Assembly (NCBI GenBank): GCA_963677595.1
Contig: OY782041.1
Span: forward strand, 3,424,001 to 3,488,000
Direction: 5' to 3'
Source of the DNA: Spirochaetia bacterium
GTDB lineage: Bacteria; Spirochaetota; Spirochaetia; CAKZLE01
Length of the DNA: 64,000 nt
Below are positions 3,348 through 21,423 of this stretch, one piece after another; position 1 is the stretch's first letter; the number at the start of each line of letters is the position of its first letter. The translations under genes were made by a program, and so were the position numbers. The notes beneath the pieces were generated by a model. The model saw only the letters and a list, made by a program, of their open reading frames with translations. It ran no database searches and was not told the DNA's origin.

Positions 3348-3350
3348 ATG

Positions 3351-5370: not shown

Positions 5371-5389
5371 CCTGCGCTGGTATGTGGTG

Positions 5390-5827
5390 TTACGCAGCCC
5401 GTTTTCGTGTATGCCGCGGGAGGTCGTTCCCGGCAGTCTTGCTGAAGAGCCTGACGAACCAGTTGGTGCTTGCCTTGTAGATATAGTCAGCCACTGCATC
5501 CTCTGCAAGGGTGTCCTTGTCTTCCTGCATCATGGAGAACCAGTGCTCTGATACGTTGAGGTAGAGTTCCATCATAGTCCGCTTTCGGAATGCCAGTTTC
5601 ACCATGAGGGTGTCGAGTTCATAGGTCAGGGGAACATAGATGTTCTCATAGTACATGAAGAGCATATCATCGAAGGAGAACTCACAGTTGTATCTCTTCT
5701 GTGTCTCGTTATTGTAGAAGTTGATGTGGTCAAGGAGCGTGTTCCATCCCTCGTCACTGCCCATGACCATGCCGACGTTGGTAAAAGCATTCTCAACATA
5801 TTGTCTCTTGTCAGTTATCTGTGACAT
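5390..5827 (-). CDS. Hypothetical protein resembling the DUF4032-like helical domain
   Basis: AGGAG RBS. The pattern LLDHI...SFDD...YYENIYVP...T..ELYL.VSEHW recalls DUF4032-type C-terminal domains (recognised by eye). Confidence 0.55.
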   Translation of the reverse strand: MSQITDKRQYVENAFTNVGMVMGSDEGWNTLLDHINFYNNETQKRYNCEFSFDDMLFMYYENIYVPLTYELDTLMVKLAFRKRTMMELYLNVSEHWFSMMQEDKDTLAEDAVADYIYKASTNWFVRLFSKTAGNDLPRHTRKRAA

Positions 5828-6001
5828 GCGCCACTCCTTAAAAAGTATTTATTTATCGATACCATACGGTATATCGAAAAATAAATCAATATATTCAAGA
5901 AGAAAATGCTTGACAAATATGACATTTCACCCATATCTAATAAAAGATTCGATAATCCTCAAAAAAACAAAGAGAATACTCATAGATATATAAGTGTGCA
6001 G

Positions 6002-7003: not shown

Positions 7004-7130
7004 AGATGTATGCTCCCTGTGGTGTTCTGCAATATACAATGATCAGATATCTACACTAATATGATATGTTAGATTCAAAGAGAACGCAATCATAATGTGA
7101 AACCGGACAAGGGGTATGGTCCGGGTCAGG

Positions 7131-7562
7131 TCACTTCTGGATCTGGAGGATGCTCGTCAGCACGATCAGGTGCAGTACCGCCGTCTCGATCCAACCGATC
7201 CAGTCAGAACCGTCGAAGTTGCCGAAATCGATGGTCAGGATATCGAGGATGACGATGAGCGCCAGCCAGAAGACCAGGATGACAGCAGTGGCCGTCTTGC
7301 CGAGCTTTGCAGGGATGGCCTTGACGAAGAGCTTCGCGGCGAGGAAGACTCCGCAGATCAGTTCGAACCCCGATATGATATAGGTCAGCAGTTCCCGGTC
7401 CCCGCCGAACATGTTCGAGACCTCACGTGAGAGATCGCTGCCGATCCCGTCGCCAGATGAGAACCCGGTGATCCCCATCGCGAGGAGGAGGAGGGCGAGA
7501 AGGACCTGCAGTACATTCTTCGACGCGAGTCCCTGGAGCTTGACTGTTGGGTCTTTTGCCAT
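7131..7562 (-). CDS. Hypothetical membrane protein (about 4 TM)
   Basis: AAGGAG RBS, hydrophobic segments, genome-like codon usage. Confidence 0.75.
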   Translation of the reverse strand: MAKDPTVKLQGLASKNVLQVLLALLLLAMGITGFSSGDGIGSDLSREVSNMFGGDRELLTYIISGFELICGVFLAAKLFVKAIPAKLGKTATAVILVFWLALIVILDILTIDFGNFDGSDWIGWIETAVLHLIVLTSILQIQK

Positions 7563-7775
7563 AGTATTCTCTCCTTATGCATTCATACCTGTCGTAAGTA
7601 TACCGTATAATGACCTGGAATAGCATAAATAGCTTATGAATTTAGCACAGCTGGATACCGATTACGGCAGATACAGGCAATCGATAAGAAATGTCTTCAT
7701 ATTATACACTTTCATTTCATCCCTTCTTTGATTTCCACCGGAATCCGTGTATAGTGATAGGGTAAGGAGACCCTG

Positions 7776-8246
7776 ATGCCCGAACGACTCATCGCTGTCA
7801 TACATGGACCGAACCTCAATATGCTTGGATTACGGCAGATCGGTATCTACGGTACCGGGACCATGGAGGACGTCAACCGGGAACTCGCCGCTGAGGCAGA
7901 TTCCCTCGGCTATGAGCTTGAGTTCTTCCAGTCCAACTCGGAAGGGGGGCTGGCAACCTACATCCAGCAGTGCCGGGGTCGTGTATCCGGGATCGTGATC
8001 AATGCAGGGGCCTATACCCACTATTCGGTGGCACTGCGGGATGCCATCAGCTCCTGCGAGGTGAAGACGGTCGAAGTCCATATATCGAACATCCACCAGC
8101 GGGAGAAATTCCGGCACTTCTCGATGATCGCTCCAGTCTGTGTGGGACAGATCTGCGGCTTCGGTCCCTACAGCTATATCCTGGGCCTGCGGGCCCTGGT
8201 CCGCAGGATAGAACGGACAGCCCACAGAAAAGGGGAGAACTCATGA
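7776..8246 (+). CDS. aroQ: Type II 3-dehydroquinate dehydratase, catalytic residues intact
   Basis: HGPNLNMLGLR...IYG, FQSNSEG, INAGAYTHYS, VEVHISNIHQREKFRH; AAGGAG RBS. Confidence 0.95.
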   Translation: MPERLIAVIHGPNLNMLGLRQIGIYGTGTMEDVNRELAAEADSLGYELEFFQSNSEGGLATYIQQCRGRVSGIVINAGAYTHYSVALRDAISSCEVKTVEVHISNIHQREKFRHFSMIAPVCVGQICGFGPYSYILGLRALVRRIERTAHRKGENS

Positions 8247-8683
8247 AGAAATACCTGGTAATATCGGGACCGAACCTGAACCTGCTCGGCCAGCGGAAGA
8301 CCTCCATTTACGGCGGTGTCTCGCTTGCCGAGATCCATGAGGAGCTCGGCAGCCTTGCCGATAAGCTCGGGGTCGAGGTCGAGACCTTCCAGTCGAACTC
8401 GGAGGGGGAGATCATCGACAAGCTGCAGGAATCCCCGGAGACCTGCGACGGCATCATCATCAATGCCGGGGCACTTGCCCACTACAGCTACTCCCTGCGG
8501 AGCGCGCTCGGGGCTACGCTGCTTCCCTGCGTCTCGGTGCAGATGTCCAATGTCTTTGCCCGGGAGGAGGAGTTCCGCCACGAATCTGCCATCGCCTCAG
8601 TCTGTGTGGGGTCGATCGGGGGGTTCGGGATGGACAGTTACCTGCTGGCCCTCGAGGCCCTGGTAAACCTGACGAAAGTATAA
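8243..8683 (+). CDS. aroQ: Second type II dehydroquinase paralogue with a divergent active site
   Basis: True start is MKKYLV at 8243 (ATGA overlap, GGGGAG RBS). GPNLNLLGQR..IYG and FQSNSEG are kept, but EVHISN has become SVQMSN. Confidence 0.88.
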   Translation: MKKYLVISGPNLNLLGQRKTSIYGGVSLAEIHEELGSLADKLGVEVETFQSNSEGEIIDKLQESPETCDGIIINAGALAHYSYSLRSALGATLLPCVSVQMSNVFAREEEFRHESAIASVCVGSIGGFGMDSYLLALEALVNLTKV

Positions 8684-8693
8684 GGGGGCACAG

Positions 8694-9467
8694 ATGGTCG
8701 CAGCATGGGGACGTGTAGCAAACAGTTTCTCAGATCTTACGCAGACAGCACACGATGGGTTCGATTTCTCCCTGCCTCTCCCACGTCTTATCACAGACCT
8801 GGGGGATGATGACTTCGCACGGCTGCAGACCCTTCGTGGGGAGGAGGGAATCTCCCTGGATGTTTGCATGGTCCCGCTCCCTGCATCGATCACAGTCACC
8901 GAACCAGGGTTCAACCTCTATCTCTGGATGGAGAACCTGAAATCCCATATCTCCCGCATCTCAGCACTCGGCTGCCGTACACTCCTGTGGAACAACGGCT
9001 TCGCGAGGATGATCCCGGAGGAGGGATCGATCGCCAGGGCGAAGGACCAGGTGCTCCACTTCCTGAACCTGCTCGGCGGCATCGCCGAGGACTTCGGGAT
9101 GCAGGTGCTCATCGAGCCGCTCAGTCCGGACAGGACGAACTTCCTCAACACCCTCCCCGAGACGGTGGATTTCCTCTCCCAGGTCAACAGGCCCGCCTTT
9201 TCCTGTGCCCTCAGCACCGGGGAGTTGGATATGATCGGGCTCACCCCTGCAGACCTGGCGGGATCCCTTGATATGGTCAGCCTTGTCCTGCTGGGAAAGC
9301 CGCTCTATGCGTATGACGGGACCATCGAGCCAGGCTCCTGGGACCCTGATACGAGCCTGGCTCTCCTGGATACCCTGAAAGCTGCCGGGTATACCGGTAT
9401 GTTCTGTCTTCCTGCCGATGCTGTCGCCTCAGACCTGGTGCAGTGCCGGGAGCACTGGCGCAGCTGA
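8694..9467 (+). CDS. Xylose-isomerase-like TIM-barrel protein (sugar isomerase/epimerase family), divergent
   Basis: IEPLSPDRTNFLNT resembles the EPLNRYE..FINT motif of ketose 3-epimerases. C-terminal LKAAGYTG. Confidence 0.7.
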   Translation: MVAAWGRVANSFSDLTQTAHDGFDFSLPLPRLITDLGDDDFARLQTLRGEEGISLDVCMVPLPASITVTEPGFNLYLWMENLKSHISRISALGCRTLLWNNGFARMIPEEGSIARAKDQVLHFLNLLGGIAEDFGMQVLIEPLSPDRTNFLNTLPETVDFLSQVNRPAFSCALSTGELDMIGLTPADLAGSLDMVSLVLLGKPLYAYDGTIEPGSWDPDTSLALLDTLKAAGYTGMFCLPADAVASDLVQCREHWRS

Positions 9468-9543
9468 CCCTGTCTTAAAAGCAGTAAGATATCGCTTCTT
9501 TTTTACCGATTGAAGAATTTACAATTTCTTTTCTATAAGTAAG

Positions 9544-9571
9544 TTGACATGTGATATATTTGTGTTATTCT
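9544..9571 (+). promoter_or_regulatory. Sigma70-type promoter of the TRAP operon
   Basis: TTGACA at 9544, 16-bp spacer, extended -10 TGnTATTCT. Confidence 0.65.
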
Positions 9572-9572
9572 T

Positions 9573-9584
9573 AGATTATAATCT
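9573..9584. promoter_or_regulatory. Palindromic operator AGATTATAATCT (candidate GntR site 1)
   Basis: Perfect 12-bp palindrome directly after the -10 box. The core recurs at 12630. Confidence 0.6.
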
Positions 9585-9658
9585 GTTTATTTTAACAGGC
9601 ATGGGTGTATTCCTGCAGGTTCTACGGGGCTCATCCATGGGAATTTAAGGAGGAAAGG

Positions 9659-10669
9659 ATGAAAAAAATTCTTATTGCTGTCGTTTTGGTTCTTCTCGTC
9701 GGGACATTCGTCTGGGCTGAAGGAACTCAGGAAGCAACTGGCCCAAAGACCTTCAAGCTGACCTATAACCAGCTCAATCCTGAAGACCAGCCGCAGGGGA
9801 TCACCGAGACCAAGTTCAAACAGAAGATAGAGGAACTCTCAGGCGGTCAGATCACGGTAGATACCTACTACAGTGGATCGCTGTTCACCCAGGAAGGAGA
9901 GGTTACGGCCATGATGACCGGGGACCTGGATATCTCGACCCTGGCCTTCCAGGATATCGCACCATACCTTCCTTCTGCTGCCATGTTCGCAGCACCCTAT
10001 ATCTTCACCAGCTATGACCATGTCAGGAATGTATGGGGACCGGATTCCGAGGTCGCACAGAAATTCTATCAGCAGGTATCGGATGCCTGCGGGTACACCC
10101 CGATCGCTGCCATGCACCAGGGCTCACGGCTCATCAACACCAAGTGGGAGACCCCGATCATGACCCCGGATGACATGAAGGGGATGGTCCTGAGGATGCC
10201 GAATGCACCATCCTGGATCGATGCAGGCGAGTCGATGGGAGGGGATGTCACCCCTATCGCCTATTCTGAGGTCTATACCGCACTCCAGACCGGTGCGATC
10301 GAAGGCCAGGATAACCCGCTGACGAACACCTATGCCATGAAGTTCTATGAGGTCACCAAGCAGATCTCCCTCACCAGGCATATCATCGATGTCAAGCTCC
10401 TCTGCGTGACCAACAGCACCTGGGAAGCCATGACTGCACAGCAGCAGGCCTGGATGAAGCAGGCAGCCCAGTATGCATGTGATGCCGGTACTCAGGCAAC
10501 CGTGAACAGTGAGAACGACCTGCTCGACTTCTACAAGGACTACGGTCTGATGATCACCTATCCTGACGTCGAGGCTTTCCAGGCACACTCATTCAAGTGG
10601 TACCAGGACAACGGCAGGACTGCAGAGTGGGACATGGACCTCTACAATGCCGTCCAGGCACTGAAGTAA
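9659..10669 (+). CDS. dctP: TRAP substrate-binding protein (DctP), carboxylate-binding type
   Basis: Start MKKILI at 9659 (AAGGAGG RBS). LRMP conserved Arg, EVYTALQTGAIEGQDNP, FYEV. Confidence 0.93.
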   Translation: MKKILIAVVLVLLVGTFVWAEGTQEATGPKTFKLTYNQLNPEDQPQGITETKFKQKIEELSGGQITVDTYYSGSLFTQEGEVTAMMTGDLDISTLAFQDIAPYLPSAAMFAAPYIFTSYDHVRNVWGPDSEVAQKFYQQVSDACGYTPIAAMHQGSRLINTKWETPIMTPDDMKGMVLRMPNAPSWIDAGESMGGDVTPIAYSEVYTALQTGAIEGQDNPLTNTYAMKFYEVTKQISLTRHIIDVKLLCVTNSTWEAMTAQQQAWMKQAAQYACDAGTQATVNSENDLLDFYKDYGLMITYPDVEAFQAHSFKWYQDNGRTAEWDMDLYNAVQALK

Positions 10670-10764
10670 GGTCTCCTGATAGATAAATCAACAAGGGTAC
10701 AGGCGCTGCGGTCCTAAGGCGGCGCCTGTCCTGTACAAGGAAGTTACGAGAAAGAGGAGTCTGA

Positions 10765-11292
10765 ATGAATGTGCTAAAGAGGGTCTTTAAGTTTCTTGTG
10801 GATATCATTGAGGTGTGGGTTCCGGCAACGGTCTTCGTCGCGATGTTCCTGGTGTTCCTGGTGAACGTGTTCTTCCGGTATGTGATGAAGAATCCGCAGA
10901 ACTGGACCTATGAGTTCTCGATCAATGCCTTCGTCATCGTCGGGCTCATGGGAGCCTGTACGGCAGCCCGTGCCGAGGACCATGTCGTCTTCGACCTGCT
11001 CTATTCCAATCTCCAGCCGAAGTCCCAGAACATCCTGAGGATCATCAGCTATGCGGTCATCATCATCCTCTTCAGTATATCGCTCCCGGCGACCGTGAAG
11101 TATATCTTCAAGCTCCCGAATGTCACCTCGATCATGAAGATACCGCAGAAGATCATCTTCAGCTCATACCCGATCCTGCTTGTCTCGATGATCATCCGGT
11201 CGGCGCACAGGATGGTCCTCGATATCATCGCATTGAAGAGAAAGACCTACGCCCAAACCTACAACACTGATAAAAAGGAAGTCCTCATATGA
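10765..11292 (+). CDS. dctQ: TRAP small permease (DctQ)
   Basis: NVFFRYVM..P..WTYE, HVVFD; four TM segments. Confidence 0.9.
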   Translation: MNVLKRVFKFLVDIIEVWVPATVFVAMFLVFLVNVFFRYVMKNPQNWTYEFSINAFVIVGLMGACTAARAEDHVVFDLLYSNLQPKSQNILRIISYAVIIILFSISLPATVKYIFKLPNVTSIMKIPQKIIFSSYPILLVSMIIRSAHRMVLDIIALKRKTYAQTYNTDKKEVLI

Positions 11293-12572
11293 GCTGGTAT
11301 ATCCTGATTCCCTTCGTGTTCCTCATCTTCGCCTTTGCCATCCGGATGCCGATCGGCCTTGGCATGATCGCCGGTTCCATCGCCTACTTCCTGATCAAGG
11401 GGATGCGGATCGGGATCCTCGTCAACGCGATCACCTATGGGCTGACCAATGCCTATATCCTGATAGCGATCCCGCTGTTCATCTTCACGGCCAACGTGAT
11501 GAACTCCAGCGAGGTCACGGACAGGATCTTCGATTTCGCACGCTCAGTCATCGGCGGCAAACCCGGTGCCACGGGCTATGTGAACATCATCGCATCCCTG
11601 ATCTTCGCCGGGATGACCGGCAGCGCTGTTGCCGATGCATCAGGGCTGGGGACCCTTGAGATCGCCCAGATGGAGAAGGAGGGCTACGATATGCCGTTCT
11701 CCTGTGCGATCACCTCTGCAACGGCAGTCATCGGCCCGATCTTCCCACCGTCGATACCCTTCGTCATCTATGCCATGATCTCCGGGGCTTCGATCGGGAA
11801 GCTGTTCATCGGCGGTATGGTACCGGCTATCATCCTGGTCATCGTCATGGGCATCTACGTCTATATCGTCTCGAAGAGACGTAATTACCCCAAGGGTGAG
11901 CGGGTAGCGTTCAAGGTCTTCATCGTCAGCACCCTCAAGGCTGTACCGGCACTGCTGACACCGGTCATCCTGCTCGCAGGTATCTATACCGGTATCATGA
12001 CCCCTACCGAGGCAGGAGCCATCGCAGCAGGCTATACCCTGCTGATCTCTTTCTTCATCTACAAATCCCTGAGCTTCAAGTCGCTGGGTACCATCCTGCT
12101 CAACACCATCCGCACGACCGGGGTCATCTTCCTCGTCATCGCCGGTGCCTACGGGTTCTCGTTCATCGTGACCTCAGAGCAGGTCTCCCGCTATGTCGTC
12201 GATGCCCTCGCCGGTGTCGTGAACAGCCCCATCGTCTTTCTCTTCGCCGTGAATATCCTGTTCCTCATCCTCGGGGCCCTCATCGACGTGAATGTCTCGG
12301 AACTCGTGTTCCTGCCGATCATCCTGCCGCTCGTGAAGCACTTCGGGATCGACCTCGTCCATTTCGGGGTCATGATCTGCCTGAACATGATGATTGGCTT
12401 GCTGACGCCGCCGTTCGGCATGCTCCTGTTCGTCACGGCCGGGATCGGGAAGATATCATTGAAACCGCTGATCAAGGAAGTACTGCCCCTGATCGGGGTG
12501 CTGCTGATCGCGCTGTTCATCATCACCTATGTACCAGAATCCGTGCTGTTCCTGACACGGCTCGTGAAATAA
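11289..12572 (+). CDS. dctM: TRAP large permease (DctM)
   Basis: LIAIPLFIF, GSAVADA, GPIFPPSIP, TPTEAGA, LLTPPFG. Confidence 0.95.
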   Translation: MSWYILIPFVFLIFAFAIRMPIGLGMIAGSIAYFLIKGMRIGILVNAITYGLTNAYILIAIPLFIFTANVMNSSEVTDRIFDFARSVIGGKPGATGYVNIIASLIFAGMTGSAVADASGLGTLEIAQMEKEGYDMPFSCAITSATAVIGPIFPPSIPFVIYAMISGASIGKLFIGGMVPAIILVIVMGIYVYIVSKRRNYPKGERVAFKVFIVSTLKAVPALLTPVILLAGIYTGIMTPTEAGAIAAGYTLLISFFIYKSLSFKSLGTILLNTIRTTGVIFLVIAGAYGFSFIVTSEQVSRYVVDALAGVVNSPIVFLFAVNILFLILGALIDVNVSELVFLPIILPLVKHFGIDLVHFGVMICLNMMIGLLTPPFGMLLFVTAGIGKISLKPLIKEVLPLIGVLLIALFIITYVPESVLFLTRLVK

Positions 12573-12624
12573 CACTGCCTGCCGGGTAACCGGCAGCAGG
12601 AGTGTAGGAGAGGTTTTTAGTTAT

Positions 12625-12644
12625 TTTATGATTATAATCTAAAA
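12625..12644. promoter_or_regulatory. Candidate GntR operator 2 (core GATTATAATC) upstream of the catabolic operon
   Basis: Same 10-bp palindromic core as 9574-9583, in the AT-rich gap before the aldolase gene. Confidence 0.55.
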
Positions 12645-12686
12645 GTATTTATATTATTTTTTGAGATTACCTACAGGAGGCAAGCC

Positions 12687-13358
12687 ATGGCCCATGTATA
12701 TACCAAGATCGATAGACCGGAGAGAAGCCTGATTGAGGCATTCGCGGAGTTCTCTTCTGCGACCGTGTACGAGGCATCGGGCAGGAAGGGGTCGGTGAAC
12801 CCGGCGATCAAGCCGATCGCCAAGGGACTGAGACTGCTCGGTCCCGCGGTCACGGTCAGCTGCAAGCCCAATGACAACCTCATGCTCCATAAGGCCATCC
12901 AGATAGCCAAACCGGGCGATGTCATCATCGCCGATACCCAGGGGTTCTATGATGCCGGGTACTGGGGTGACCTGATGGCAGGATCCGCCAAGGCCCGGGG
13001 GATCGCCGGGCTGGCGATCGACGGCGGGGTGCGGGACAGCGAGGAGATCATAAAGATGGGATTCCCGATCTTCTCGAGGGGATTGTGCATCCGGGGAACC
13101 AATAAGGCTGTGCTGGGAAAGGTCAACCACCCGCTGGTCTTCGGGGATGTACTCGTGAATCCCGGCGACCTGGTCCTCGGAGACGATGACGGGATCGTGA
13201 TCGTCGCAAAAGAGGATATGCTATCCGTTCTGGAAGCAACGAAGAAGCGGGTCGCCAAGGAGATCGACAAGGCCGCACAGCTGGCTGAAGGCATCCCTGG
13301 TGTGATCATCAACAAGCTGGATGCCGTCTTCGAGCGGCTGGGGCTGATAGAGGAATAA
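12687..13358 (+). CDS. 4-carboxy-4-hydroxy-2-oxoadipate (CHA)/HMG aldolase, RraA/LigK family
   Basis: SATVYEA, GPAVTV, DNLMLHKA, GYWGDLM, IDGGVRD (catalytic R-D), PGDLVLGDDDG; length typical of LigK/ProA/GalC. Confidence 0.88.
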   Translation: MAHVYTKIDRPERSLIEAFAEFSSATVYEASGRKGSVNPAIKPIAKGLRLLGPAVTVSCKPNDNLMLHKAIQIAKPGDVIIADTQGFYDAGYWGDLMAGSAKARGIAGLAIDGGVRDSEEIIKMGFPIFSRGLCIRGTNKAVLGKVNHPLVFGDVLVNPGDLVLGDDDGIVIVAKEDMLSVLEATKKRVAKEIDKAAQLAEGIPGVIINKLDAVFERLGLIEE

Positions 13359-13359
13359 G

Positions 13360-14406
13360 ATGAGAGTTGATGTAGCTAATCTGAAACAGGCTATCGTCTC
13401 CCTGCTGGGGACGGTGGACCTGGAGCCCGGGGAAGCTGACGCAGTCTCGAGGATCATGGCTGAAGCTGACATGAAGGGGATCTCCACCCACGGGATCTAC
13501 TTCCTGCCGATGCTGCTCAAGCGGATCGATGCAGGGCTGGTGAAGGTGCCCACACAGGTGACGGAAGTCTCCGAGAGCGGTGCGCTCCTCCATCTTGATG
13601 GGGGTAACGGGATCGGGCAGGTCGCCGCCGAGCGTGCGATGGGCGGGGCTATCGAGAAAGCCCGTGATTTCGGGATCGGCATGGCCCTGGTGAGGAATAC
13701 CAACCATATCGGGCTGCTGGCCCATTACAGCCTGATGGCTGCCAAGGAGGGGATGATAGGCATCTGCCTCTCGAACAGTGCCCCAGCCATGGCCCCATGG
13801 GGCGGGGCTCAGGCGCTCTTCGGCACGAATCCCTTCTCCATAGCGGCTCCTGGGAATGGTGAGTTCCCAATCGTCCTCGACATGTCCACCTCCATCGTGG
13901 CTAGGGGAAAGATCAGGAAAGCTGACCGCCTGGGGGAGCGTATCCCGGAAGGCTGGGCCCTTGATGGGAGAGGGGAGCCAACGACTGACCCGTCCGAGGC
14001 CTTGAAGGGCAGCCTGCTGCCGATCGGCGGGCCGAAGGGATACGGGATGGCCCTGTTCATCGATCTCATCGGAGGCATGATCTCGGGATCGAGTTACCTC
14101 AACGATGTGAAGACCTTCCATAAACCCCTGGGCCCGACCGGTGTGGGAATGGCCGCGATCGCTATCGACATCAGTCGGTTCATGGCCCCGGAGACCTATG
14201 AGCCGCTGATCAAGGAGTATATACAGCAGCTGAAAGCTTCTCCCAAGGCACAAGGTGTCGAGCGCATCTTCATGCCCGGGGAGATCGAACTGAGCAGGGA
14301 GCAGGAAGCAGCTTCGGCAGGTGCCGAGATTGATGATGATGTGGTCGCAACGATCAACGGGCTCCTGTCTGATAAGCATATCGATGTTCAATTACGAGGG
14401 AAATGA
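13360..14406 (+). CDS. Type-2 malate/L-lactate dehydrogenase family (Ldh_2) 2-hydroxyacid oxidoreductase
   Basis: GISTHG, DGGNGIG, RNTNHIG, FGTNPFS, LDMSTS, GGPKGYG, MPGE. Confidence 0.92.
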   Translation: MRVDVANLKQAIVSLLGTVDLEPGEADAVSRIMAEADMKGISTHGIYFLPMLLKRIDAGLVKVPTQVTEVSESGALLHLDGGNGIGQVAAERAMGGAIEKARDFGIGMALVRNTNHIGLLAHYSLMAAKEGMIGICLSNSAPAMAPWGGAQALFGTNPFSIAAPGNGEFPIVLDMSTSIVARGKIRKADRLGERIPEGWALDGRGEPTTDPSEALKGSLLPIGGPKGYGMALFIDLIGGMISGSSYLNDVKTFHKPLGPTGVGMAAIAIDISRFMAPETYEPLIKEYIQQLKASPKAQGVERIFMPGEIELSREQEAASAGAEIDDDVVATINGLLSDKHIDVQLRGK

Positions 14407-16137
14407 ATGAATAGGATCTTACGTGTGAACACGCGTACCGGGGAGCTCCGGTACGTTAAGACTACTGAGAAGGAGATGCAGGAGGGCGGTCGTTCGTTCA
14501 TCGTCCATAACCTGCTGCGTGAGGTGGATCCTGCCTGCGATCCCATCGGGGGTGATAACCACTTCATCATCGCCAACGGCCTGCTGGGCGATACCAGCCT
14601 CACGACTGCCGGCCGTCTCTCGATCGGGGCGAAGAGCCCGCTGACCGGGGGCGTGAAGGAGAGCAATGTCGGGGGGAGTGCCGGGAAGGCCCTGGGGAAG
14701 CTGGGGCTCAAGGCAGTCATCCTCGAGGATATACCGGAGAAGGTGAGCTGCAGGGTCCTGGTCGTCAGAAAGGACGGGGCAGAACTCGTGGAGACGCCCG
14801 AACTGCAGGGGGTGGAGTCCAAGAAGACCATAGACGCCCTGCAGGGACGGTACGGGACAGAAGCAGCAGTGCTCTGCATCGGCCCGGCCGGTGAGTACCG
14901 GCTGTCAGCAGCTGTGGTGGCTACCACGGACCATACGGGTGTCCAGGTGCGAGTCGCCGGACGCGGCGGACTGGGGGCAGTCATGGGTTCGAAGGGGATC
15001 AAGGCGGTCGTCCTGGACAGCAAGGGGGCAACAGCCCCGAAACCGGCTGACCCTGAAGCCTTCTCAGACGTGAAGAAGCAGATCGCGAAGATCATCAGGG
15101 ATGACCCCAAGACGGAGAACCGTCACGACTACGGGACCCCGGCGGTGCTCGGGACCTGCAACGCACTCGGTATCCTGCCGACGAGGAGCTTCCGCACCGG
15201 GAGTTTCGAGCAGGCAGACGCGATCTCGGGGGATACCGTTGCCGAGCTGATCGTGAAGAGAGGCGGCGAGGGGAAGCGGGGACTGCCCTGCGTCAGGGGC
15301 TGCATCATAGCCTGCTCCAACATCTTCCCTCATCCGGACGGGAAAGCACATATCGCTTCCCTGCAGTATGAGAACATCGCGCTGCTCGGGTCGAACCTCG
15401 GGATCGGCGACATCGACGAGGTGGCTGAATTGAACGACCTCTGCAATGAGGTTGGGATCGATGCCATAGACGGCGGGGCCGCCATCGGGGTCGCCATGGA
15501 TATGGGGTTGCTTCCCTTCGGCGATGCCGAAGGTGCCAAGGAGCTCGTGCGCCAGGTCGGGCAGGGAACCGCGATGGGCAGGGTCATCGGCTCAGGTGCT
15601 GCGGTCACCGGCAAGGTCTTCGGCTCGACCCGGATCCCGACGGTCAAAGGACAGGCCATGCCGGCTTATGACCCCCGTTCACTCAAAGGCATCGGCGTCA
15701 CCTATGCCATGTCAGCCATGGGTGCGGACCATACCGCAGGGAATGCCCTGGAGACCGCGAAGTACCTCGACCCGCAGGGAACTGAAGGCCAGGTGCAGAT
15801 CTCGCACAAACTGCAGGTACGCGGAGCGATCCTGGACTCTTTCGGGGTCTGCCTCTTCCTGCGGCCAGCCTTCGTCAAGGACCCGGAGCTTGCCGCACAA
15901 CTGCTCAATGCCCGGTACGGCTGGGACTGGACCTATCGCGACGTGCGGGCGATGAGTGATGAGTGCCTCAGGGCTGAACACGAATTCAACCGGGCAGCGG
16001 GGATCGATGAGACCCGCTGTGATATCCCGGAGTTCATGAGGAAGGAGGCGTTGCCCCCTATGAATACGACCTTTGACATACCCCGTGATGAGATGCAGAA
16101 GATCTGGGAGACTGAGGTCGAGGAAGGAGTTTTTTAG
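14407..16137 (+). CDS. Aldehyde:ferredoxin oxidoreductase (W/Mo-bis-pterin, AOR family)
   Basis: KSPLTGGVKESNVGG, IGPAGE, AGRGGLGAVMGSKGIKA, CVRGCIIAC, NEVGIDAID, GADHT, GVCLF. Confidence 0.93.
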   Translation: MNRILRVNTRTGELRYVKTTEKEMQEGGRSFIVHNLLREVDPACDPIGGDNHFIIANGLLGDTSLTTAGRLSIGAKSPLTGGVKESNVGGSAGKALGKLGLKAVILEDIPEKVSCRVLVVRKDGAELVETPELQGVESKKTIDALQGRYGTEAAVLCIGPAGEYRLSAAVVATTDHTGVQVRVAGRGGLGAVMGSKGIKAVVLDSKGATAPKPADPEAFSDVKKQIAKIIRDDPKTENRHDYGTPAVLGTCNALGILPTRSFRTGSFEQADAISGDTVAELIVKRGGEGKRGLPCVRGCIIACSNIFPHPDGKAHIASLQYENIALLGSNLGIGDIDEVAELNDLCNEVGIDAIDGGAAIGVAMDMGLLPFGDAEGAKELVRQVGQGTAMGRVIGSGAAVTGKVFGSTRIPTVKGQAMPAYDPRSLKGIGVTYAMSAMGADHTAGNALETAKYLDPQGTEGQVQISHKLQVRGAILDSFGVCLFLRPAFVKDPELAAQLLNARYGWDWTYRDVRAMSDECLRAEHEFNRAAGIDETRCDIPEFMRKEALPPMNTTFDIPRDEMQKIWETEVEEGVF

Positions 16138-16139
16138 TT

Positions 16140-16898
16140 ATGTCTGATTGTACGTATGATCTGTCCGGGAAACGCTGCCTGGTCACAGGGGCTTCCAGGG
16201 GGCTCGGGGAAGAGGTCGCCAGGCTGCTGATCGCAGCCGGGGCCAGTGTCGCCCTCACTGATATAGACATCAGCGGGGCCGAGAAGATTGCGAAGGAGCT
16301 CGACCCAGGGGCCGAGAGGACCCTCTGCCTTGCGCTGGATGTCTCGAAGGAGGAGCAGGTGAGCTCTGTCGTCAAGGCAGTCGCTGAGTCCTACGGGGGA
16401 CTCGATGTCCTGGTCAATGTGGCGGGAATCCTCAAGCATCTGCCTATTGACGAGATGAGCCTGCAGGACTTCCAGAGTATCCTCGACGTGAACCTCACCG
16501 GCATCTTCCTGATGTGCCGGGAGTCAGTCCGGGTCATGAAGAGGCAGGGAAGGGGTAAGATCGTTAACATCGCCTCCCTCGGCGGGGTGACGGGACGACC
16601 CGGGGTCGGGGTGAACTATGCCGCCTCCAAGTCGGGCGTCATCGGCATGTCCCAGTGCCTGGCACGGGAAGTGGGTAAGTACGGGATCTATGTGAACACG
16701 ATCAATCCCGGGCCCATCCTGACAGAACTGACCAAGGTGTACCCGGAAGAGGTCTTCGCAAAATGGAATGCTGGCAGGGCTGTCGAGAAGAACGGCCTGC
16801 CGGAGGATATAGCAAATGCGGTCCTGTTCCTTGCCTCTGACCAGTCTGACTGGGTCACCGGCGTGTCGTTGAACGTCAACGGCGGAATATTCATGTAA
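16140..16898 (+). CDS. Short-chain dehydrogenase/reductase, probably NAD-dependent
   Basis: TGASRGLG, acidic residue at the end of beta2 (LTDID), NVAG, YAASK, PGPI. Confidence 0.92.
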   Translation: MSDCTYDLSGKRCLVTGASRGLGEEVARLLIAAGASVALTDIDISGAEKIAKELDPGAERTLCLALDVSKEEQVSSVVKAVAESYGGLDVLVNVAGILKHLPIDEMSLQDFQSILDVNLTGIFLMCRESVRVMKRQGRGKIVNIASLGGVTGRPGVGVNYAASKSGVIGMSQCLAREVGKYGIYVNTINPGPILTELTKVYPEEVFAKWNAGRAVEKNGLPEDIANAVLFLASDQSDWVTGVSLNVNGGIFM

Positions 16899-16920
16899 TT
16901 ACACACAGGAGGTTTCATAT

Positions 16921-17286
16921 ATGGCAAAGACTATAGCAGTCAATATCAAGGACGTGACGCCGGTGAAGCGTGAACCGGCCCGTACGTCATGGACGCTCGT
17001 ATCGGAGAAGACCGTCGGGGCACAGAACCTGGCGGTTGGGGTGAATGAGACCCCTGCCGGGAGCCAGGTCCCTGAGCACGAGCATAACGTGGAAGAGGAG
17101 GTCATGTTCTTCGTCGCTGGTCGCGGCCTCTTCGTCACGGAAGACCAGGAGATTCCCCTCGAACCTGGCGTCTGTGTCTACAACCCGCCGGGCGGGAAGC
17201 ACAAGATCCTCAATACCGGGGATGAGGTCCTGAGGTTCATCTGGATCTACTCGCCGCAGCTGCCCAGCCACAGGGTAGAGAAATAA
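16921..17286 (+). CDS. Cupin-domain protein
   Basis: Motif 1 PEHEHNVEEEV and motif 2 NPPGGKHKILN; 3-His-1-Glu metal site intact. Confidence 0.9.
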   Translation: MAKTIAVNIKDVTPVKREPARTSWTLVSEKTVGAQNLAVGVNETPAGSQVPEHEHNVEEEVMFFVAGRGLFVTEDQEIPLEPGVCVYNPPGGKHKILNTGDEVLRFIWIYSPQLPSHRVEK

Positions 17287-17303
17287 TCAGGGAGGAGAAG
17301 ACC

Positions 17304-18272
17304 ATGTCAGATTGGAAATTCCCGCCGAAAGGCGGACATGCAGAGAGTCCTACGAAATTGTATTACCATACCATGACGAAGAGGGAGCTGGAAGAGCGCC
17401 TGAAGGTGAACGATATCATCCTGATCCCCTTTGGTTCTACCGAGAACCATGGAGACTCGCAACCGATGGGAGAGGACGGGTTCATCGCTACCAGGACCTG
17501 CGAGATGATCGCGGAACGGACCGGCTGTACGATAGCTCCTCCTATCTGGTATGCATCGCATCCGTTCTCCCATCTGGGACAGCGGTTCACCGTCCCGGTC
17601 TCGGACCAGGTCAACTCCGACTATGTCAGGGCGATCATATCGGGGTTCTGGAATGCGGGTTTCCGGAAACAGATCCTGATCAGCAGCCACGGGCAGGAGT
17701 ATATCATCCCGTCAGCCATGCAGGAGTGGGCTAAGAAGTACCAGGTACCGGCCATGCTCTTCTTCATCGATGTGTGGAAGACTGCCGGAACGGCCATGAT
17801 GGACCAGGCTCACGGGGGACCGTTCGAGACGCCGTTCCGTCATGGCGATGAGGCTGAGAACTCAGTCTGCCTCGCGCTCTTCCCTGAACTCGTGCAGATG
17901 GAGCATGCCGTGGACACGAAGACCTGGGGGTTCCTCCCCGAGGGCCATGTCGACAAGGGCGGCGACATCTACGGGCTCCCCCTTGCCGGGCAGAACCAGG
18001 TTGGAGCCGGCGGTGTAGAGTTCGCCATCTATCCCGAGGGCGTGTTGGGCAAGCCATCCCTTGCCAAGGCAGAGAAAGCCTACCAGGCGATCTCGAACTA
18101 CATGGACTATGTGGTGAAGCTCCATGACGATGTCCTGGAACGGTTCCCTGCTGGGGTGTTGCCTGAGATGAAGTATGTGACCCAGCGGGACAAGGAGGAG
18201 ATCGAGGCCCTGCTGAAGGGACCGAACGAGGAAGGCGGCAAGCATATCTGGACCGTCGCCTGGCCGTCCTGA
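17304..18272 (+). CDS. Creatininase-family hydrolase resembling 3-dehydro-scyllo-inosose hydrolase (IolN)
   Basis: PFGSTENHG...GED, SSHGQE, PFRHGDEAE. The N-terminal W..PP.GGH extension recalls Thermotoga IolN (from memory, not aligned). Confidence 0.8.
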   Translation: MSDWKFPPKGGHAESPTKLYYHTMTKRELEERLKVNDIILIPFGSTENHGDSQPMGEDGFIATRTCEMIAERTGCTIAPPIWYASHPFSHLGQRFTVPVSDQVNSDYVRAIISGFWNAGFRKQILISSHGQEYIIPSAMQEWAKKYQVPAMLFFIDVWKTAGTAMMDQAHGGPFETPFRHGDEAENSVCLALFPELVQMEHAVDTKTWGFLPEGHVDKGGDIYGLPLAGQNQVGAGGVEFAIYPEGVLGKPSLAKAEKAYQAISNYMDYVVKLHDDVLERFPAGVLPEMKYVTQRDKEEIEALLKGPNEEGGKHIWTVAWPS

Positions 18273-18288
18273 TAGGAAGATCCGGCAG

Positions 18289-18312
18289 TCAGTGAGCCGG
18301 TACCGGCTCACT
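18289..18312 (+). terminator. Intercistronic hairpin
   Basis: CAGTGAGCCGG-ta-CCGGCTCACTG. Confidence 0.55.
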
Positions 18313-18335
18313 GGCCAGTCTTTTCGATTGATACA

Positions 18336-19379
18336 ATGGTTGGACAAATGAAAGCGATAGTAAAACCCAATGCCGAACCCGGCGTGTTCGAAGTAAGAGA
18401 TGTCCCGATACCGAAAGTCACCGATAACCATATCCTCGTCAAGGTGAAGGCTACCGGTCTCTGCTATACGGATGTATCCATCCTCAACGGGACCTATAAA
18501 GGAAGGAAACCGGTTCCTTATCCCCTCATCATGGGCCATGAGGGATCTGGTGTGGTGGCTGAAGTAGGGAAGGGTGCAGGCCACTTCGACCCGGGTGACC
18601 GGGTCGCCTTCGAAGCCCTGAGCGGCTGCGGCACCTGCATCAACTGCCGGAAGGGCGACAAGAACATGTGCCGCAACTGGGACCATATCGGGATCACCTA
18701 CGATGGGACCTTCGCAGAGTATATCCTGCTCCCTGCTGAACTCGTGCATCCTCTGGCCGATTCCGTCTCCTTTGCAGATGCGGCCGTGATGGAGCCGTTG
18801 AGCCTGGTGGTGCGGTCGATCAGCCATGTGCTTCCGCAGATCGGGGAGACAGCGACCATCATCGGTCCCGGATCGGTAGGATTACTGCACCTGCAGGCAC
18901 TCAAAGCCGCAGGCTGCGGCAAGATCATCGTCATCGGCCTCGATATCGACAGCCATCGCTTCGAGCTTGCCAAGAAGCTCGGCGCGACCCATATCGTGAA
19001 TGTGAGTCACGAGGACCCCGTCGAGTCTGTCATGGAGATCACCGACGGCTGGGGTACCGACATCCTCATCGAGACTGCAAGCTCCCCGAAGGTCTGGGAC
19101 TACATGGTTGAACTCCTGGCCCCGAAGGGGAGGATCTCGACCTTCGGGCTCTACCCGCAGTCGAACTTCGAGCCGCTGCAGCTGATACGGAGGGGCGTGA
19201 CCCTCTATGGGGATGTGGCATTCCTGCAGAAGCACTTCCTCCAGGGGCTCAACTGGCTCGAGACGGGAAAGGTCTCTGGGGAGGCACTCATCACCAAACG
19301 GTACTCGCTTGATGATGCGGCACAGGCATTCGAGGACTTCAGGGCAAAAGAGACGGTGAAATGTCTCTTTGAGCTGTAG
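18336..19379 (+). CDS. Zn-dependent medium-chain dehydrogenase, polyol/cyclitol type (start may be 18348)
   Basis: GLCYTD, GHEGSG, CGTCINC...C, GPGSVG. Confidence 0.92.
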   Translation: MVGQMKAIVKPNAEPGVFEVRDVPIPKVTDNHILVKVKATGLCYTDVSILNGTYKGRKPVPYPLIMGHEGSGVVAEVGKGAGHFDPGDRVAFEALSGCGTCINCRKGDKNMCRNWDHIGITYDGTFAEYILLPAELVHPLADSVSFADAAVMEPLSLVVRSISHVLPQIGETATIIGPGSVGLLHLQALKAAGCGKIIVIGLDIDSHRFELAKKLGATHIVNVSHEDPVESVMEITDGWGTDILIETASSPKVWDYMVELLAPKGRISTFGLYPQSNFEPLQLIRRGVTLYGDVAFLQKHFLQGLNWLETGKVSGEALITKRYSLDDAAQAFEDFRAKETVKCLFEL

Positions 19380-19394
19380 AGAGTAGGGGAAGGT

Positions 19395-20534
19395 ATGCTG
19401 AAGAGGGACGAGCTGTTCGACAACGAGCTGCTGGGTCAGCTCCTTGAGGAGGGAAATATCGATCTCCTCCTCGTCTCCTCACGGCATAACGTCCGCTACC
19501 TGACGGGGGGGTACTTCTTCCCCCTCTTCGTCTGGGACACCAATACCCGGGGGACGCAGTACCTGCCGTTCATCGGGATCCCGCAAGGGAGGACTGACGA
19601 GTCGTTCTTCATCGGCAGACCCTGGGAGAAGGGAGTCCTGGAGGATGCGGGGGTCTGGATCTCTGACTGTCAGGAGACCCCGACACTCGGGATCGAACCT
19701 GCGGTGGAACTGCTTGCTGAGACAGTCACGACACGCGGGTTCGCTTTAGCATGCATCGGGGTCGAGATGACGGTCCTCCCTGCGGAGGCCTACCTCCTCC
19801 TCAAGAGACTCCTCCCGCATGCACAGTTCGTGGACTGCACCCCGGTCATGGACAGCCTGCGGGCTGTCAAGCACGAGCGGGAGATCGACATCATCCGGCG
19901 CGGGACGCTCAAGAACCTCACTACCGTGAATGATGTACTCACCTCCGTGGTCCCAGGGATGACCACCAAGGAGGTGGCTGATGCCGTAGCTCAGGGCTAC
20001 CGGGAGAAGGCCATCCACTTCCTCTATGCACTCGTCTGTGCAGGCCCCTCGTTCTACCGGGCGGCCTCCGAGCATATACAGCTGAAAGAGGGACATATCC
20101 TCCAGATCGATACGGGGGCCTTGGAAGAGGGGTATACCGTCGAGACCTGTCGGACCGGACATCTGGGAGAGCCTACGGAAGAGGCACAAACCATGCTCGG
20201 GCTCTGCAGGGAGCTCGAACACCACATGCTGCCTTGGTTCACCCCCGGTATGATGGCCTCTGCCATCCAGCAGGAGGCTGACAGGTTCCTGGGAGAACGG
20301 GCTTCCCCATTCAGGGGGAACTTCATCGCCCACGGTATCGGCATGATCCATCATGAGAAGCCCGTGATCAATGCGACTTCCAACGAACGCCTGCAGGAAG
20401 GCATGGTCCTCTCCCTGGAGATGGAGCATTTCTCCAAGTCTACCGGGCACGTGAAGATCGAGGACATGGTCGTGATCAGGGGTGACGGGGTGGAGATCCT
20501 GAGCCCAGGCGGCAAGAGATGGAACCATGGATAA
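19395..20534 (+). CDS. M24 (Xaa-Pro peptidase/creatinase fold) hydrolase
   Basis: HNVRYLTGG N-domain, LRAVK..E, IDTG...GY.VE.CRT, AHGIG..HE.P, LEME, KIEDMV. Confidence 0.85.
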   Translation: MLKRDELFDNELLGQLLEEGNIDLLLVSSRHNVRYLTGGYFFPLFVWDTNTRGTQYLPFIGIPQGRTDESFFIGRPWEKGVLEDAGVWISDCQETPTLGIEPAVELLAETVTTRGFALACIGVEMTVLPAEAYLLLKRLLPHAQFVDCTPVMDSLRAVKHEREIDIIRRGTLKNLTTVNDVLTSVVPGMTTKEVADAVAQGYREKAIHFLYALVCAGPSFYRAASEHIQLKEGHILQIDTGALEEGYTVETCRTGHLGEPTEEAQTMLGLCRELEHHMLPWFTPGMMASAIQQEADRFLGERASPFRGNFIAHGIGMIHHEKPVINATSNERLQEGMVLSLEMEHFSKSTGHVKIEDMVVIRGDGVEILSPGGKRWNHG

Positions 20535-20760
20535 GGGGACTGGTATCACGATAGAGCTCAAGGCCCCGATGAACAAACAGGTACGATCCGGTACCTATAC
20601 TGCAGCTGAAGGCAGTACGGTAAGCGGATTCTTGAGCTCTCTTGGTATCGGTGATTTGTTAGATTACCTGGTCCTGATTAACGGCAGGCCGGCTGAAGGA
20701 TCATCAACCCTCAAGGACGGGGACGAGCTGCAGCTCCTGCTGCTGCTCAGCGGCGGGTAA
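20527..20760 (+). CDS. MoaD/ThiS family sulfur-carrier protein (AOR-associated)
   Basis: 77 aa, VLING...LKDGDEL, C-terminal GG. Confidence 0.9.
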   Translation: MDKGTGITIELKAPMNKQVRSGTYTAAEGSTVSGFLSSLGIGDLLDYLVLINGRPAEGSSTLKDGDELQLLLLLSGG

Positions 20761-20766
20761 GGTCTG

Positions 20767-21423
20767 TCACCAGAGCCTGTTCACGAACTTGCTTGCCTGG
20801 GTGAGGTGCTGCACCATCTTCTCGGAAGCCTGCTGCTGGTCCCCTGAAAGGATCGCATTGAGCAGTTCAAGGTGTTCTCTCAAGACATCGTGGTAGCGTC
20901 TCTTCGTGAATCGTTCGCCGATGAAGTTGCGGATACGCAGGGTCCGGTCCATGAGCTGGCTGTATATCTTGTTCAGGGACTCGTTCTCCAGGGAACTGAC
21001 GATCGCCATATGGGTGGTCTCTCGGGTACCCCACTCGATGGACTGCTCATCAAGGTCCTCGGAGGTGGCAAGCATCACCTGCAGTTCATCACGCAGTGCC
21101 TGCAGTTCCTCATTCCCGCCTCTCGCAGCAGCCCTGGCCGCTACGCTGGACTCGATGATCTCCCTGATCTCGTAGATATCACGGATCTCGTTCTGCGTGA
21201 TGTTGGAGATGATGGAACCGCGTCCCGGGAAGTTCTCGACGAAGCCGTTCTGTTCCAGTTCACGAAGTGCTTCCCTGATGGGGGTCTTGCTCACACCCAG
21301 GTTCTCGGCCAGGATGGCTTCGTTGATGGGCATCCCGGGCTTGAGCTCATTGCTGATGATCTTCTGCTTCAGGGTCTCATAGACTTGTATCTTCTTGTTC
21401 TTCGTCTTATTATAGATATCCAA
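20767..21423 (-). CDS. GntR (FCD/VanR subfamily) transcriptional regulator
   Basis: Probable TTG start at 21423. wHTH LAENLGVSKTPIREAL and an FCD domain (IREIIE...EH..LL.AI..GD). Confidence 0.9.
   Translation of the reverse strand: MDIYNKTKNKKIQVYETLKQKIISNELKPGMPINEAILAENLGVSKTPIREALRELEQNGFVENFPGRGSIISNITQNEIRDIYEIREIIESSVAARAAARGGNEELQALRDELQVMLATSEDLDEQSIEWGTRETTHMAIVSSLENESLNKIYSQLMDRTLRIRNFIGERFTKRRYHDVLREHLELLNAILSGDQQQASEKMVQHLTQASKFVNRLW

Follow-up and report, generated by a model that had tools for sequence, protein, structure and literature searches.

A conserved spirochaete gene cluster as a candidate oxygen-independent, non-aromatic route from quinate and shikimate to pyruvate and oxaloacetate

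In the aerobic qui/qut pathway, quinate is converted to protocatechuate by quinate dehydrogenase, dehydroquinase and dehydroshikimate dehydratase. Anaerobes specialized in fermenting quinate and shikimate were reportedly described by Brune et al. in 2002, and in the physiological work attributed to Brune and Schink such fermenters are said to use a non-aromatic route. A separate way of opening a six-membered ring is the inositol pathway of Thermotoga maritima, reportedly made up of IolG, IolM, IolN and IolO (Rodionova et al., 2013, are said to have described it). Here we analyze a gene cluster at positions 7776 to 21423 of a 64,000-nucleotide stretch of DNA from a Spirochaetia bacterium (the window), which encodes an IolN-like hydrolase, AroQ proteins and an aldolase of the type acting on CHA (4-carboxy-4-hydroxy-2-oxoadipate). 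The cluster resembles a combination of the Thermotoga-type opening of the inositol ring with the end step of the LigK-type CHA-aldolase route, and is a member of neither.

As in the Thermotoga pathway, two oxidations would produce a cyclic 2-hydroxy-1,3-diketone, in which an enzyme of the creatininase fold would then break a C-C bond with water, and the cluster hydrolase passes the IolN model. Unlike that pathway, the cluster has a separate hydrolase clade, no orthologue of IolG, IolM or IolO, and a lower route of cupin, aldehyde:ferredoxin oxidoreductase (AOR), Ldh_2 and CHA aldolase, with a link to AroQ, AroE or AroD. With the LigK-type route it shares the active-site residues of the final aldolase and, by prediction, the intermediate CHA; however, it lacks the dioxygenase, the tautomerase and the 4-oxalomesaconate hydratase, and CHA would be reached through hydrolysis and two oxidations. 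The aerobic qui/qut pathway has the same quinate/3-dehydroquinate/3-dehydroshikimate pool and catabolic AroQ and AroE, but the cluster holds no dehydroshikimate dehydratase, would not aromatize its substrate and would run AroQ toward 3-dehydroquinate. During phloroglucinol degradation by the anaerobe Clostridium scatologenes, too, a metal hydrolase opens a six-membered 1,3-diketone in a retro-Claisen hydrolysis (excerpted text of PMC10470551). There, the hydrolase is a cyclase-family member and the route runs through CoA chemistry, and none of those genes was seen in the cluster; since that enzyme is of the cyclase family, neither the M24 protein nor the cupin of our cluster was retained as a phloroglucinol-type ring hydrolase. 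The cluster would explain the physiology of the fermenters Ilyobacter insuetus and Propionivibrio limicola, although their route may differ; the hydroaromatic specialist that the first-pass annotation had called Propionivibrio pelophilus is P. limicola, according to a reference title in PMC2822220. As that annotation had supposed, searches of the open literature, with most subscription papers outside their reach, found no genetic description of an anaerobic non-aromatic quinate route, nor of quinate combined with AOR or with CHA.

The full route proposed here from quinate or shikimate to CHA, which the sequences make reasonably probable as a whole, would import quinate and degrade it without oxygen or aromatic intermediates. 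A short-chain dehydrogenase/reductase (SDR; elsewhere a Gfo/Idh/MocA enzyme or AroE) would oxidize quinate at C3 to 3-dehydroquinate, and a Zn-dehydrogenase would oxidize C5 to give 3,5-didehydroquinate, a 2-hydroxy-1,3-diketone. The IolN-like enzyme would then carry out a retro-Claisen hydrolysis to HOOC-CH2-C(OH)(COOH)-CH2-CO-CH2OH, the ketol of which the cupin would isomerize to a 2-hydroxy-aldehyde. AOR, for which a few genomes would use an NAD-aldehyde dehydrogenase instead, would oxidize the aldehyde to the acid, Ldh_2 would oxidize the 2-hydroxy acid to CHA, and the aldolase would split CHA into pyruvate and oxaloacetate. AroQ1 with an AroE activity would act as an optional shikimate feeder, and AroQ2 and the TIM barrel TIM14 would probably be noncatalytic or altered partners of that branch. 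The earlier statement that every carbon is accounted for is borne out, as the conversion of quinate (C7H12O6) to CHA (C7H8O8) balances with four two-electron oxidations and two waters. So is the reported lack of a ring-cleaving oxygenase, no such family being matched by any protein of the cluster (no search for one was made in the rest of the genome); models for dehydroshikimate dehydratase likewise had no match among these proteins. Use of the same substrate with another lower route seems unlikely, and another substrate or pathway, although improbable, is still to be reckoned with.

The open reading frame list and family scans recovered every gene that the first-pass annotation had named, in the same place and of the same family. 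For comparison, we annotated 20 genome loci, the best 80 of 436 metagenome matches and three further loci, with one duplicate removed; 100 loci hold a hydrolase at least 57% identical to that of the window, and 36, here called long loci, span at least 14 kb. These loci are related by descent, their counts are not independent, and no P value is given. A core of GntR, aldolase, Ldh_2, AOR, SDR, cupin, IolN-like hydrolase and Zn-dehydrogenase recurs in Spirochaetota, NC10 and Syntrophales-related genomes. The same order of core genes in dozens of loci puts the arrangement far beyond chance, and this is a real, conserved catabolic cluster. Among the 36 long loci, Ldh_2 and the cupin are each found in 35, AOR in 31, the aldolase in 30, the Zn-dehydrogenase in 29, the SDR in 28, a Gfo/Idh/MocA enzyme in 16 and the M24 protein in 13. 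Two blind samples were drawn, each of 400 genomes. The one from the phylum of G450 (a Syntrophales record) added eight complete cores and a fragment, and the one from Spirochaetota a single carrier of the cluster-type hydrolase (G133). A biosynthetic (reverse) direction was rejected on the grounds of the importer, the GntR regulator and a predicted irreversible hydrolysis. The recurring flanks of the G450-phylum clusters, considered as a clue to the substrate, were discarded as housekeeping genes (Lon, hrcA-grpE-dnaK, maf, dap).

The IolN-like creatininase-fold C-C hydrolase (17304..18272, + strand) scores 468.4 bits against NF041098, over the cut-off of 245, and the creatininase metal ligands E47, H49, D58, H129 and E185 are invariant in 24 of 24 hydrolases. 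The same model is passed by all hydrolase clades tested, whose gene contexts differ. In a tree of 49 rows, the cluster hydrolases form one clade with 99/95 support, apart from the groups at about 50% and 34%; the hydrolase that belongs to a full iolG/M/N/O cluster falls outside this clade. Thermovenabulum gondwanense, which is in culture, has a hydrolase (WP_068747553.1) with 63% identity. A comparison of clade-specific hydrolase residues revealed no clear carboxylate-binding residue. Granted the substrate, the sequence makes the opening of 3,5-didehydroquinate by this enzyme highly probable.

The class II aldolase of the HMG/CHA type (RraA-like; 12687..13358, + strand) scores 226.2 against NF006731 (cut-off 179) and 215.8 against TIGR02798 (cut-off 304.5), and its best PDB match is 3noj, the HMG/CHA aldolase of P. 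putida (E 1.6e-48). Residues N71, H75, R123, D124, G144, T145, K147, R195 and E199 are kept in 52 of 52 cluster aldolases, that of the window included, and D102 is kept in the window and variable elsewhere. The four unrelated RraA paralogues of the same genome each miss several of these residues. N71 and K147 have been proposed to bind the C5 carboxylate of CHA (PMC5065237, in excerpt). If the substrate is the one proposed, cleavage of CHA to pyruvate and oxaloacetate would very likely be the reaction of this enzyme.

The oxidative steps can be followed through gene replacements among the loci. The SDR, a candidate quinate 3-dehydrogenase (16140..16898, + strand; PF13561), is missing from seven long loci, six of which carry an IolG-like Gfo/Idh/MocA enzyme (L102, L115, L135, L154, L161 and, by Pfam, L120; none is in view in L123). 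This suggests that the SDR and the Gfo enzyme share the first oxidation; several loci hold both. For the SDR as the enzyme of C3 oxidation, the case from sequence is evenly balanced even if the substrate is granted. The Zn-dependent dehydrogenase, a candidate 3-dehydroquinate 5-dehydrogenase (18336..19379, + strand), reaches 203 against the IolM model, below the cut-off of 450, as an analogue and not an orthologue of IolM. It is present in 62 of the 100 loci, an intact TIM epimerase (TIM16) with a different Zn-dehydrogenase in 13, and both in none. A similar pairing is found in YcjS/YcjR/YcjQ of Escherichia coli, a 3-keto-glucoside epimerization module: a TIM epimerase and Zn-dehydrogenase pair replaces the main Zn-dehydrogenase in those 13 related loci, but is absent from the window, whose TIM barrel has lost its metal ligands. 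TIM16 and its Zn-dehydrogenase were also considered as a stand-in for AOR and rejected, being exclusive with the main Zn-dehydrogenase instead. C5 oxidation by the main Zn-dehydrogenase is, on sequence and for this substrate, somewhat favored.

The AOR-family protein (14407..16137, + strand; PF01314 and PF02730, AFOR_N and AFOR_C) has 4Fe-4S cysteines that align with those of 9mqx, and a moaD gene lies nearby. AOR is found in 70 of the 100 loci and an aldehyde dehydrogenase, resembling alpha-ketoglutaric-semialdehyde dehydrogenase, replaces it in three; 27 have neither in view. An aldehyde oxidation step is supported because the two enzymes never co-occur, and with the substrate granted AOR would quite probably oxidize the 2-hydroxy-aldehyde. 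The Ldh_2-family NAD(P) 2-hydroxyacid dehydrogenase (13360..14406, + strand; PF02615) has L-sulfolactate and malate dehydrogenases as its nearest solved relatives, and its predicted formation of CHA from the 2-hydroxy triacid is, on the same proviso, fairly probable. The remaining step is assigned to a metal-binding monocupin (16921..17286, + strand; PF07883), a candidate ketol-aldose isomerase in which H53, H55 and E59 of the His-His-Glu(-His) site are invariant in 36 of 36 sequences. The cupin is found in 86 of the 100 loci and always adjoins the hydrolase; fold and ESM Atlas searches with it returned no diagnostic match. Because its fold neighbors include unrelated cupins too, the role of ketol isomerase is given to it by analogy only, and for the proposed substrate it is just barely favored.

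The clue to quinate and shikimate as substrates is the company of shikimate enzymes. AroQ1 (7776..8246, + strand) is a type II 3-dehydroquinase by TIGR01088 (187.4 bits, cut-off 169.85) with an intact active site (R19, Y24, N75, H81, D88, E99, H101, S103, R108 and R112 all kept), and likely feeds shikimate or 3-dehydroshikimate into 3-dehydroquinate. The absence of other aro genes noted in the first-pass annotation holds for the cluster but not for the genome (G000), which carries aroB, aroC, an EPSP-synthase-family gene and a 486-residue fusion of a type I AroD with AroE elsewhere. The two aroQ genes of the window are the only type II dehydroquinase genes of this genome and, because the genome already carries the AroD-AroE fusion, both are supernumerary. 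A housekeeping role for the pair was rejected because of this fusion together with the absence of aroQ from all five genomes of the same family. Among 60 relatives, aroQ is present in eight and the tandem pair in four: beside the full cluster in G043 and G035; beside TRAP, Zn-dehydrogenase, Gfo and M24 genes on a 12-kb contig in G028; and beside an aroE-like gene and TRAP genes at a contig end in G045. Moreover, the cluster AroQ is supernumerary in all five other carriers tested for both dehydroquinase types, with an AroD-AroE fusion in G451, G452 and G454 and a second aroQ elsewhere in G447 and G448.

Of the 36 long loci, 22 have a gene for AroQ, AroD or AroE; with hydrolases collapsed at 97% identity the count is 19 of 31, and at 90% it is 10 of 16. 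No aro gene is found in the 18 control loci (0 of 9 in each of two sets), which are 5-21 kb long and belong to other IolN clades. Two of the loci scored as lacking aro genes, L005 and L018, hold aroQ 18-19 kb from the hydrolase, in the latter among aroK-aroB. G133, the sole hydrolase carrier in the Spirochaetota sample, is also the sole multi-copy genome among 190 aroQ carriers, with one pair about 5 kb from the hydrolase. Three forms of shikimate enzymes are found by the cluster: a spirochaete-type AroQ with or without AroE, an NC10-type AroQ with another AroE, and a type I AroD with AroE (L120), the AroD near the cluster in L120 having a fold unrelated to that of AroQ. Thus, aroQ does co-occur with the cluster in other genomes, but its presence is not fixed, only one of eight G450-phylum clusters having it.

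The two neighbors of AroQ1 appear to be enzymes that have lost their function. AroQ2 (8243..8683, + strand; TIGR01088 171.5, cut-off 169.85) belongs to an AroQ subfamily without Asp88 and His101. The window copy has D88S, H101Q and E99S; all aligned tandem second copies have D88S, with H101F in the relatives, and D88S/H101F is found in 120 of the 120 nearest homologues of the L011 copy. Arg19, Tyr24, His81, Arg108 and Arg112 are retained in the subfamily. In type II dehydroquinase, Arg19, Tyr24, Asp88' and His101 are catalytic residues, and Asn75, His81, Ser103 and Arg112 serve in binding; Asp88' is the activator of the catalytic tyrosine and His101 the proton donor to the leaving hydroxyl (excerpt of PMC6011038). 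AroQ2 is therefore likely not a dehydroquinase, and the earlier description of both AroQ proteins as ordinary dehydroquinases stands for AroQ1 alone.

TIM14 (8694..9467, + strand; PF01261, AP_endonuc_2) has the ketose-epimerase fold, with a predicted structure (pLDDT 91) that matches D-tagatose/psicose 3-epimerases (DTE) and YcjR (6wn6) at TM 0.75-0.77. The metal/catalytic set of these epimerases is Glu-Asp-His-Glu, as read off the IolO-like and TIM16 rows; in TIM14 the strand-6 Asp is replaced by S, G or A and the strand-8 Glu by P, each in 72 of 72 rows, and the window copy also lacks the His. TIM14 and AroQ2 accompany each other in 16 of 16 loci; TIM14 always comes after AroQ2, and an intact AroQ1 is present every time. 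Complex prediction for three AroQ2 and one TIM14 gave a score of 0.60, versus 0.02 for the best of three controls; the runs agree in at least 93% of contacts, with partner pLDDT of at least 86. Among solved complexes, 116 of 157 reach the mark for this score, as do 2 of 215 mismatches; at 0.60 or below, these comprise only 18 solved complexes but both mismatches, so that the prediction weakly suggests a complex. AroQ2 and TIM14 are likely a conserved pair of pseudoenzymes; we would guess first at a complex that regulates or scaffolds the feeder branch, and altered catalysis, e.g., enolization without elimination, may also be their role. TIM14 is unlikely to be the ketol isomerase because its metal ligands are lost and it is present in only 16 of the 100 loci. 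On residues and distribution it was rejected both for that reaction and as a dehydroshikimate dehydratase, leaving the cupin as the candidate of the two that had been offered. The former view that nearly every gene has a role was likewise overstated, M24, AroQ2 and the TIM barrel having none assigned.

Several observations weigh against quinate and shikimate as the substrates, or against individual steps. Aro genes are absent from 14 of the 36 long loci; the single aroQ among the eight G450-phylum cores (13-40 kb fetched) is without aroE or aroD, and four of five tested genomes of that phylum have no aroQ match anywhere. In two of the 22 positive loci, L097 and L101, aroQ belongs to a neighboring biosynthetic operon, and biosynthetic aro genes are also near the clusters of G133 and G449. 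In G133, about 400 kb separate one aroQ triad from the cluster, and G008 has a solitary AroQ, 66-67% like AroQ1, with no cluster around it. N71 and K147 of the aldolase are also present in two of the four unrelated RraA paralogues, and none of the fold neighbors of the cupin (TM1459, DddK, KdgF and a phosphomannose isomerase) is diagnostic. The genes for the carboxylate-type TRAP transporter (DctP, DctQ and DctM by family models; 9659..12572, + strand) encode a DctP whose best PDB matches are 4pf6, followed by SiaP sialic-acid binders, and not a quinate binder; the ligand of 4pf6 may be Kdo (3-deoxy-D-manno-octulosonate). The window-type DctP is found in nine related clusters and another DctP type in 40. 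The absence of aroQ from many clusters fits an optional shikimate feeder, because quinate itself needs no AroQ; its patchiness also fits another substrate.

That other substrate could be a different carboxylated or branched cyclitol or a sugar acid, with the aro genes as accessories or hitch-hikers. The scarcity of aroQ in the G450-phylum clusters, the DctP matches and the several transporter types in use among related clusters (TRAP, TTT and ABC) all favor this possibility; yet shikimate enzymes were recruited in three forms and by none of the 18 control loci, and quinate offers the tertiary carbinol carboxylate that an aldolase of the CHA type requires. We regard it as improbable. The Thermotoga-type myo-inositol pathway, implied by the IolN annotation and by an NF041098 score of 468 bits, is the least credible of the alternatives. 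Along with the IolM score of 203, the IolO model is missed by the TIM barrel (28, cut-off 300), no IolG is found in the cluster and no close orthologue of the cluster-type Gfo was found elsewhere in the genome; an inositol route of this type would have no use for aldolase, AOR or Ldh_2. G043 carries a separate locus, L058, with IolG (456, cut-off 355), IolM (544, cut-off 450), IolN and an IolO-like protein (253, cut-off 300), and because this full set lies elsewhere the cluster is not the inositol pathway in that genome.

Two other alternatives were considered. In one, with substrate and ring opening unchanged, the SDR would oxidize the terminal CH2OH of the ketol to a 2-oxo-aldehyde, from which AOR would form CHA in one step, Ldh_2 would be a malate dehydrogenase disposing of NADH, and the cupin would act on a ring intermediate, for example as a tautomerase. 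Malate dehydrogenases are indeed among the nearest solved relatives of Ldh_2, the cupin keeps its place beside the hydrolase, and glyoxalase-fold genes are found in L003, L016, L049 and L065. However, the sister locus L056 pairs Ldh_2 and cupin with AOR, though its HpcH/GarL aldolase would yield no oxaloacetate, and several otherwise intact clusters have lost the SDR and show Gfo enzymes of the IolG-like kind; the scheme is unlikely. Gallate, which can form from dehydroshikimate and would be an expected by-product if the diketone loses water, might also or mainly be taken. It would join at 3,5-didehydroquinate, either after reduction to 3-dehydroshikimate or through hydration of its tautomer 3,5-didehydroshikimate, and the cluster would then parallel, without oxygen, the gallate dioxygenase route to CHA. 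The carbon skeleton and the end product match those of aerobic gallate catabolism (PMC5065237, in excerpt), phloroglucinol is dearomatized by an SDR in anaerobes (PMC10470551, in excerpt), and H101F in AroQ2 could suit a substrate without the C1-OH. Such a dearomatization of gallate is uphill, however, many clusters have neither AroQ nor AroQ2, and the cyclase-family hydrolase of the phloroglucinol pathway was not seen in the cluster, so that gallate is a very improbable substrate. On this weighing, the substrate class and the hydrolytic route to CHA of the first-pass annotation gained comparative support, and its TIM isomerase, its two working AroQ proteins and a fixed aroQ did not.

The cluster is likely transcribed as three units. 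A 191-bp gap before dctP separates aroQ1-aroQ2-TIM14 from the transporter genes, a 114-bp gap precedes the aldolase gene, and the stretch from the aldolase to moaD is tightly packed, with intergenic gaps of -8 to 63 bp. A sigma-70-like promoter site at 9544-9571, within the 191-bp gap, is part of a promoter-like feature (9544..9583, + strand) that includes the palindrome GATTATAATC at 9574, a candidate GntR operator; a second exact copy of GATTATAATC lies ahead of the aldolase gene (12630..12639, + strand). Both exact copies fall in intergenic gaps of the cluster, and the three matches at one mismatch or fewer are within chance. The GntR/FCD regulator (20767..21423, - strand; TTG start) is convergent here and heads the operon in most related clusters, where an ATAT-N7-ATAT array with 11-bp spacing is found upstream of gntR in 28 of 43 regions (shuffle mean 0.7). 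In a search for a shared operator before aroQ, 4 of 19 upstream regions exceeded the 95th shuffle percentile, and that of the window was below it. The GC content of the cluster is unremarkable for the genome. The MoaD/ThiS sulfur carrier with a C-terminal GG (20527..20760, + strand; PF02597, 23.1 bits, cut-off 22.5) likely serves the pterin cofactor of AOR. The accessory M24 metallopeptidase-fold protein (19395..20534, + strand; PF00557 and PF01321) has prolidases as its nearest solved structures (E 4e-21), and a lactonase or esterase is our guess for it.

Other gene neighborhoods came into view during the comparison. A sister cluster in G008 (L056, G008:C23:12000-31999, at 6725-17697) has no aro gene and combines an IolN-type hydrolase (50%), a cupin (46%), AOR and Ldh_2 with an IolO-like TIM barrel, two Zn-dehydrogenases, a transaldolase, the HpcH/GarL aldolase and a second creatininase-like gene; it would apply the same logic to a cyclitol without a carboxyl group, possibly a deoxy-inositol (quercitol). 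In a third variant (L019, L021 and L169), a cupin, an IolN-type hydrolase (43-55%), AOR and Ldh_2 occur without a CHA aldolase; L019 adds CoA-transferase subunits, malic enzyme, fumarase and a BD-FAE esterase, and L021 a BD-FAE esterase. L057 holds IolN-type, IolO-like and UxaE genes, and L058 (G043:C9:101000-120999) is a complete Thermotoga-type iolG/iolM/iolN/iolO-like cluster in a spirochaete. The window's own genome has three more IolN/creatininase-like paralogues, of which G000:C1:1819241-1820164 adjoins an enolase-superfamily dehydratase and an SDR, and 2215008-2215808 and 2746862-2747662 adjoin Ldh_2 paralogues. Aconitase X (cis-3-hydroxyproline dehydratase-like) is found inside SDR-less clusters (L098:14154-15434, L114:5006-6699, L123 and L154), some of which also hold a hydroxypyruvate-isomerase-like TIM barrel. 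The second aroQ1-aroQ2-TIM14 triad of G133 (L145:14550-16263, about 400 kb off) lies between genes for an FeS aldo-keto reductase and an MTHFR module. Biosynthetic aro genes (aroB, aroK, aroE and tyrA) adjoin the cluster in several lineages (L097, L100, L101, L148:15002-17804 and L149:6019-11483), L149 carrying two aroB and two aroQ. Phosphoenolpyruvate carboxykinase adjoins six loci, as the GTP type in L011, L014, L017, L080 and L081 (mostly close kin) and the ATP type in L107. In two genomes, carboxylesterases and extra TRAP systems are directly beside the cluster (L005:12130-13053 and L005:16199-17668; L052:6927-7964); these esterases are candidates that could free quinate from chlorogenate esters. 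The carboxykinase and esterase neighbors both count in favor of the proposed route.

Within the window, a divergent unit upstream (966-7039, - strand), which is not conserved with the cluster, encodes a UroD/MtaA-like protein (6002-7039), a second TRAP system (2046-5054) and a Zn-dehydrogenase (966-2018). Downstream (24259-28411, - strand), genes for an aldehyde dehydrogenase, a thiamine diphosphate enzyme, which scores 499.7 against a cut-off of 500 with the 5-guanidino-2-oxopentanoate decarboxylase model, and a D-2-hydroxyacid dehydrogenase resemble a separate amino-acid catabolic unit. Positions 28000-38000 have a GC content of 0.40-0.49, versus 0.55 for the genome, and may be an acquired island.

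Plants contain quinate and shikimate in abundance, both as the free acids and in chlorogenate esters, and the route proposed here, if true, would supply genes for a long-known fermentation that is genetically undescribed in the searches made. With a short enzyme list and defined intermediates and masses, the question is directly testable. A broader picture, which we put forward only tentatively, is of a widespread anaerobic hydrolytic opening of quinate in which a tungsten-type AOR captures low-potential electrons and the feeder is governed by a complex of AroQ2 and a metal-less barrel beside an active dehydroquinase. If the route holds, AOR-family enzymes would gain a fixed role in a catabolic chain, and databases would be mislabeling a large clade as the inositol hydrolase IolN and a noncanonical AroQ subfamily as dehydroquinase.

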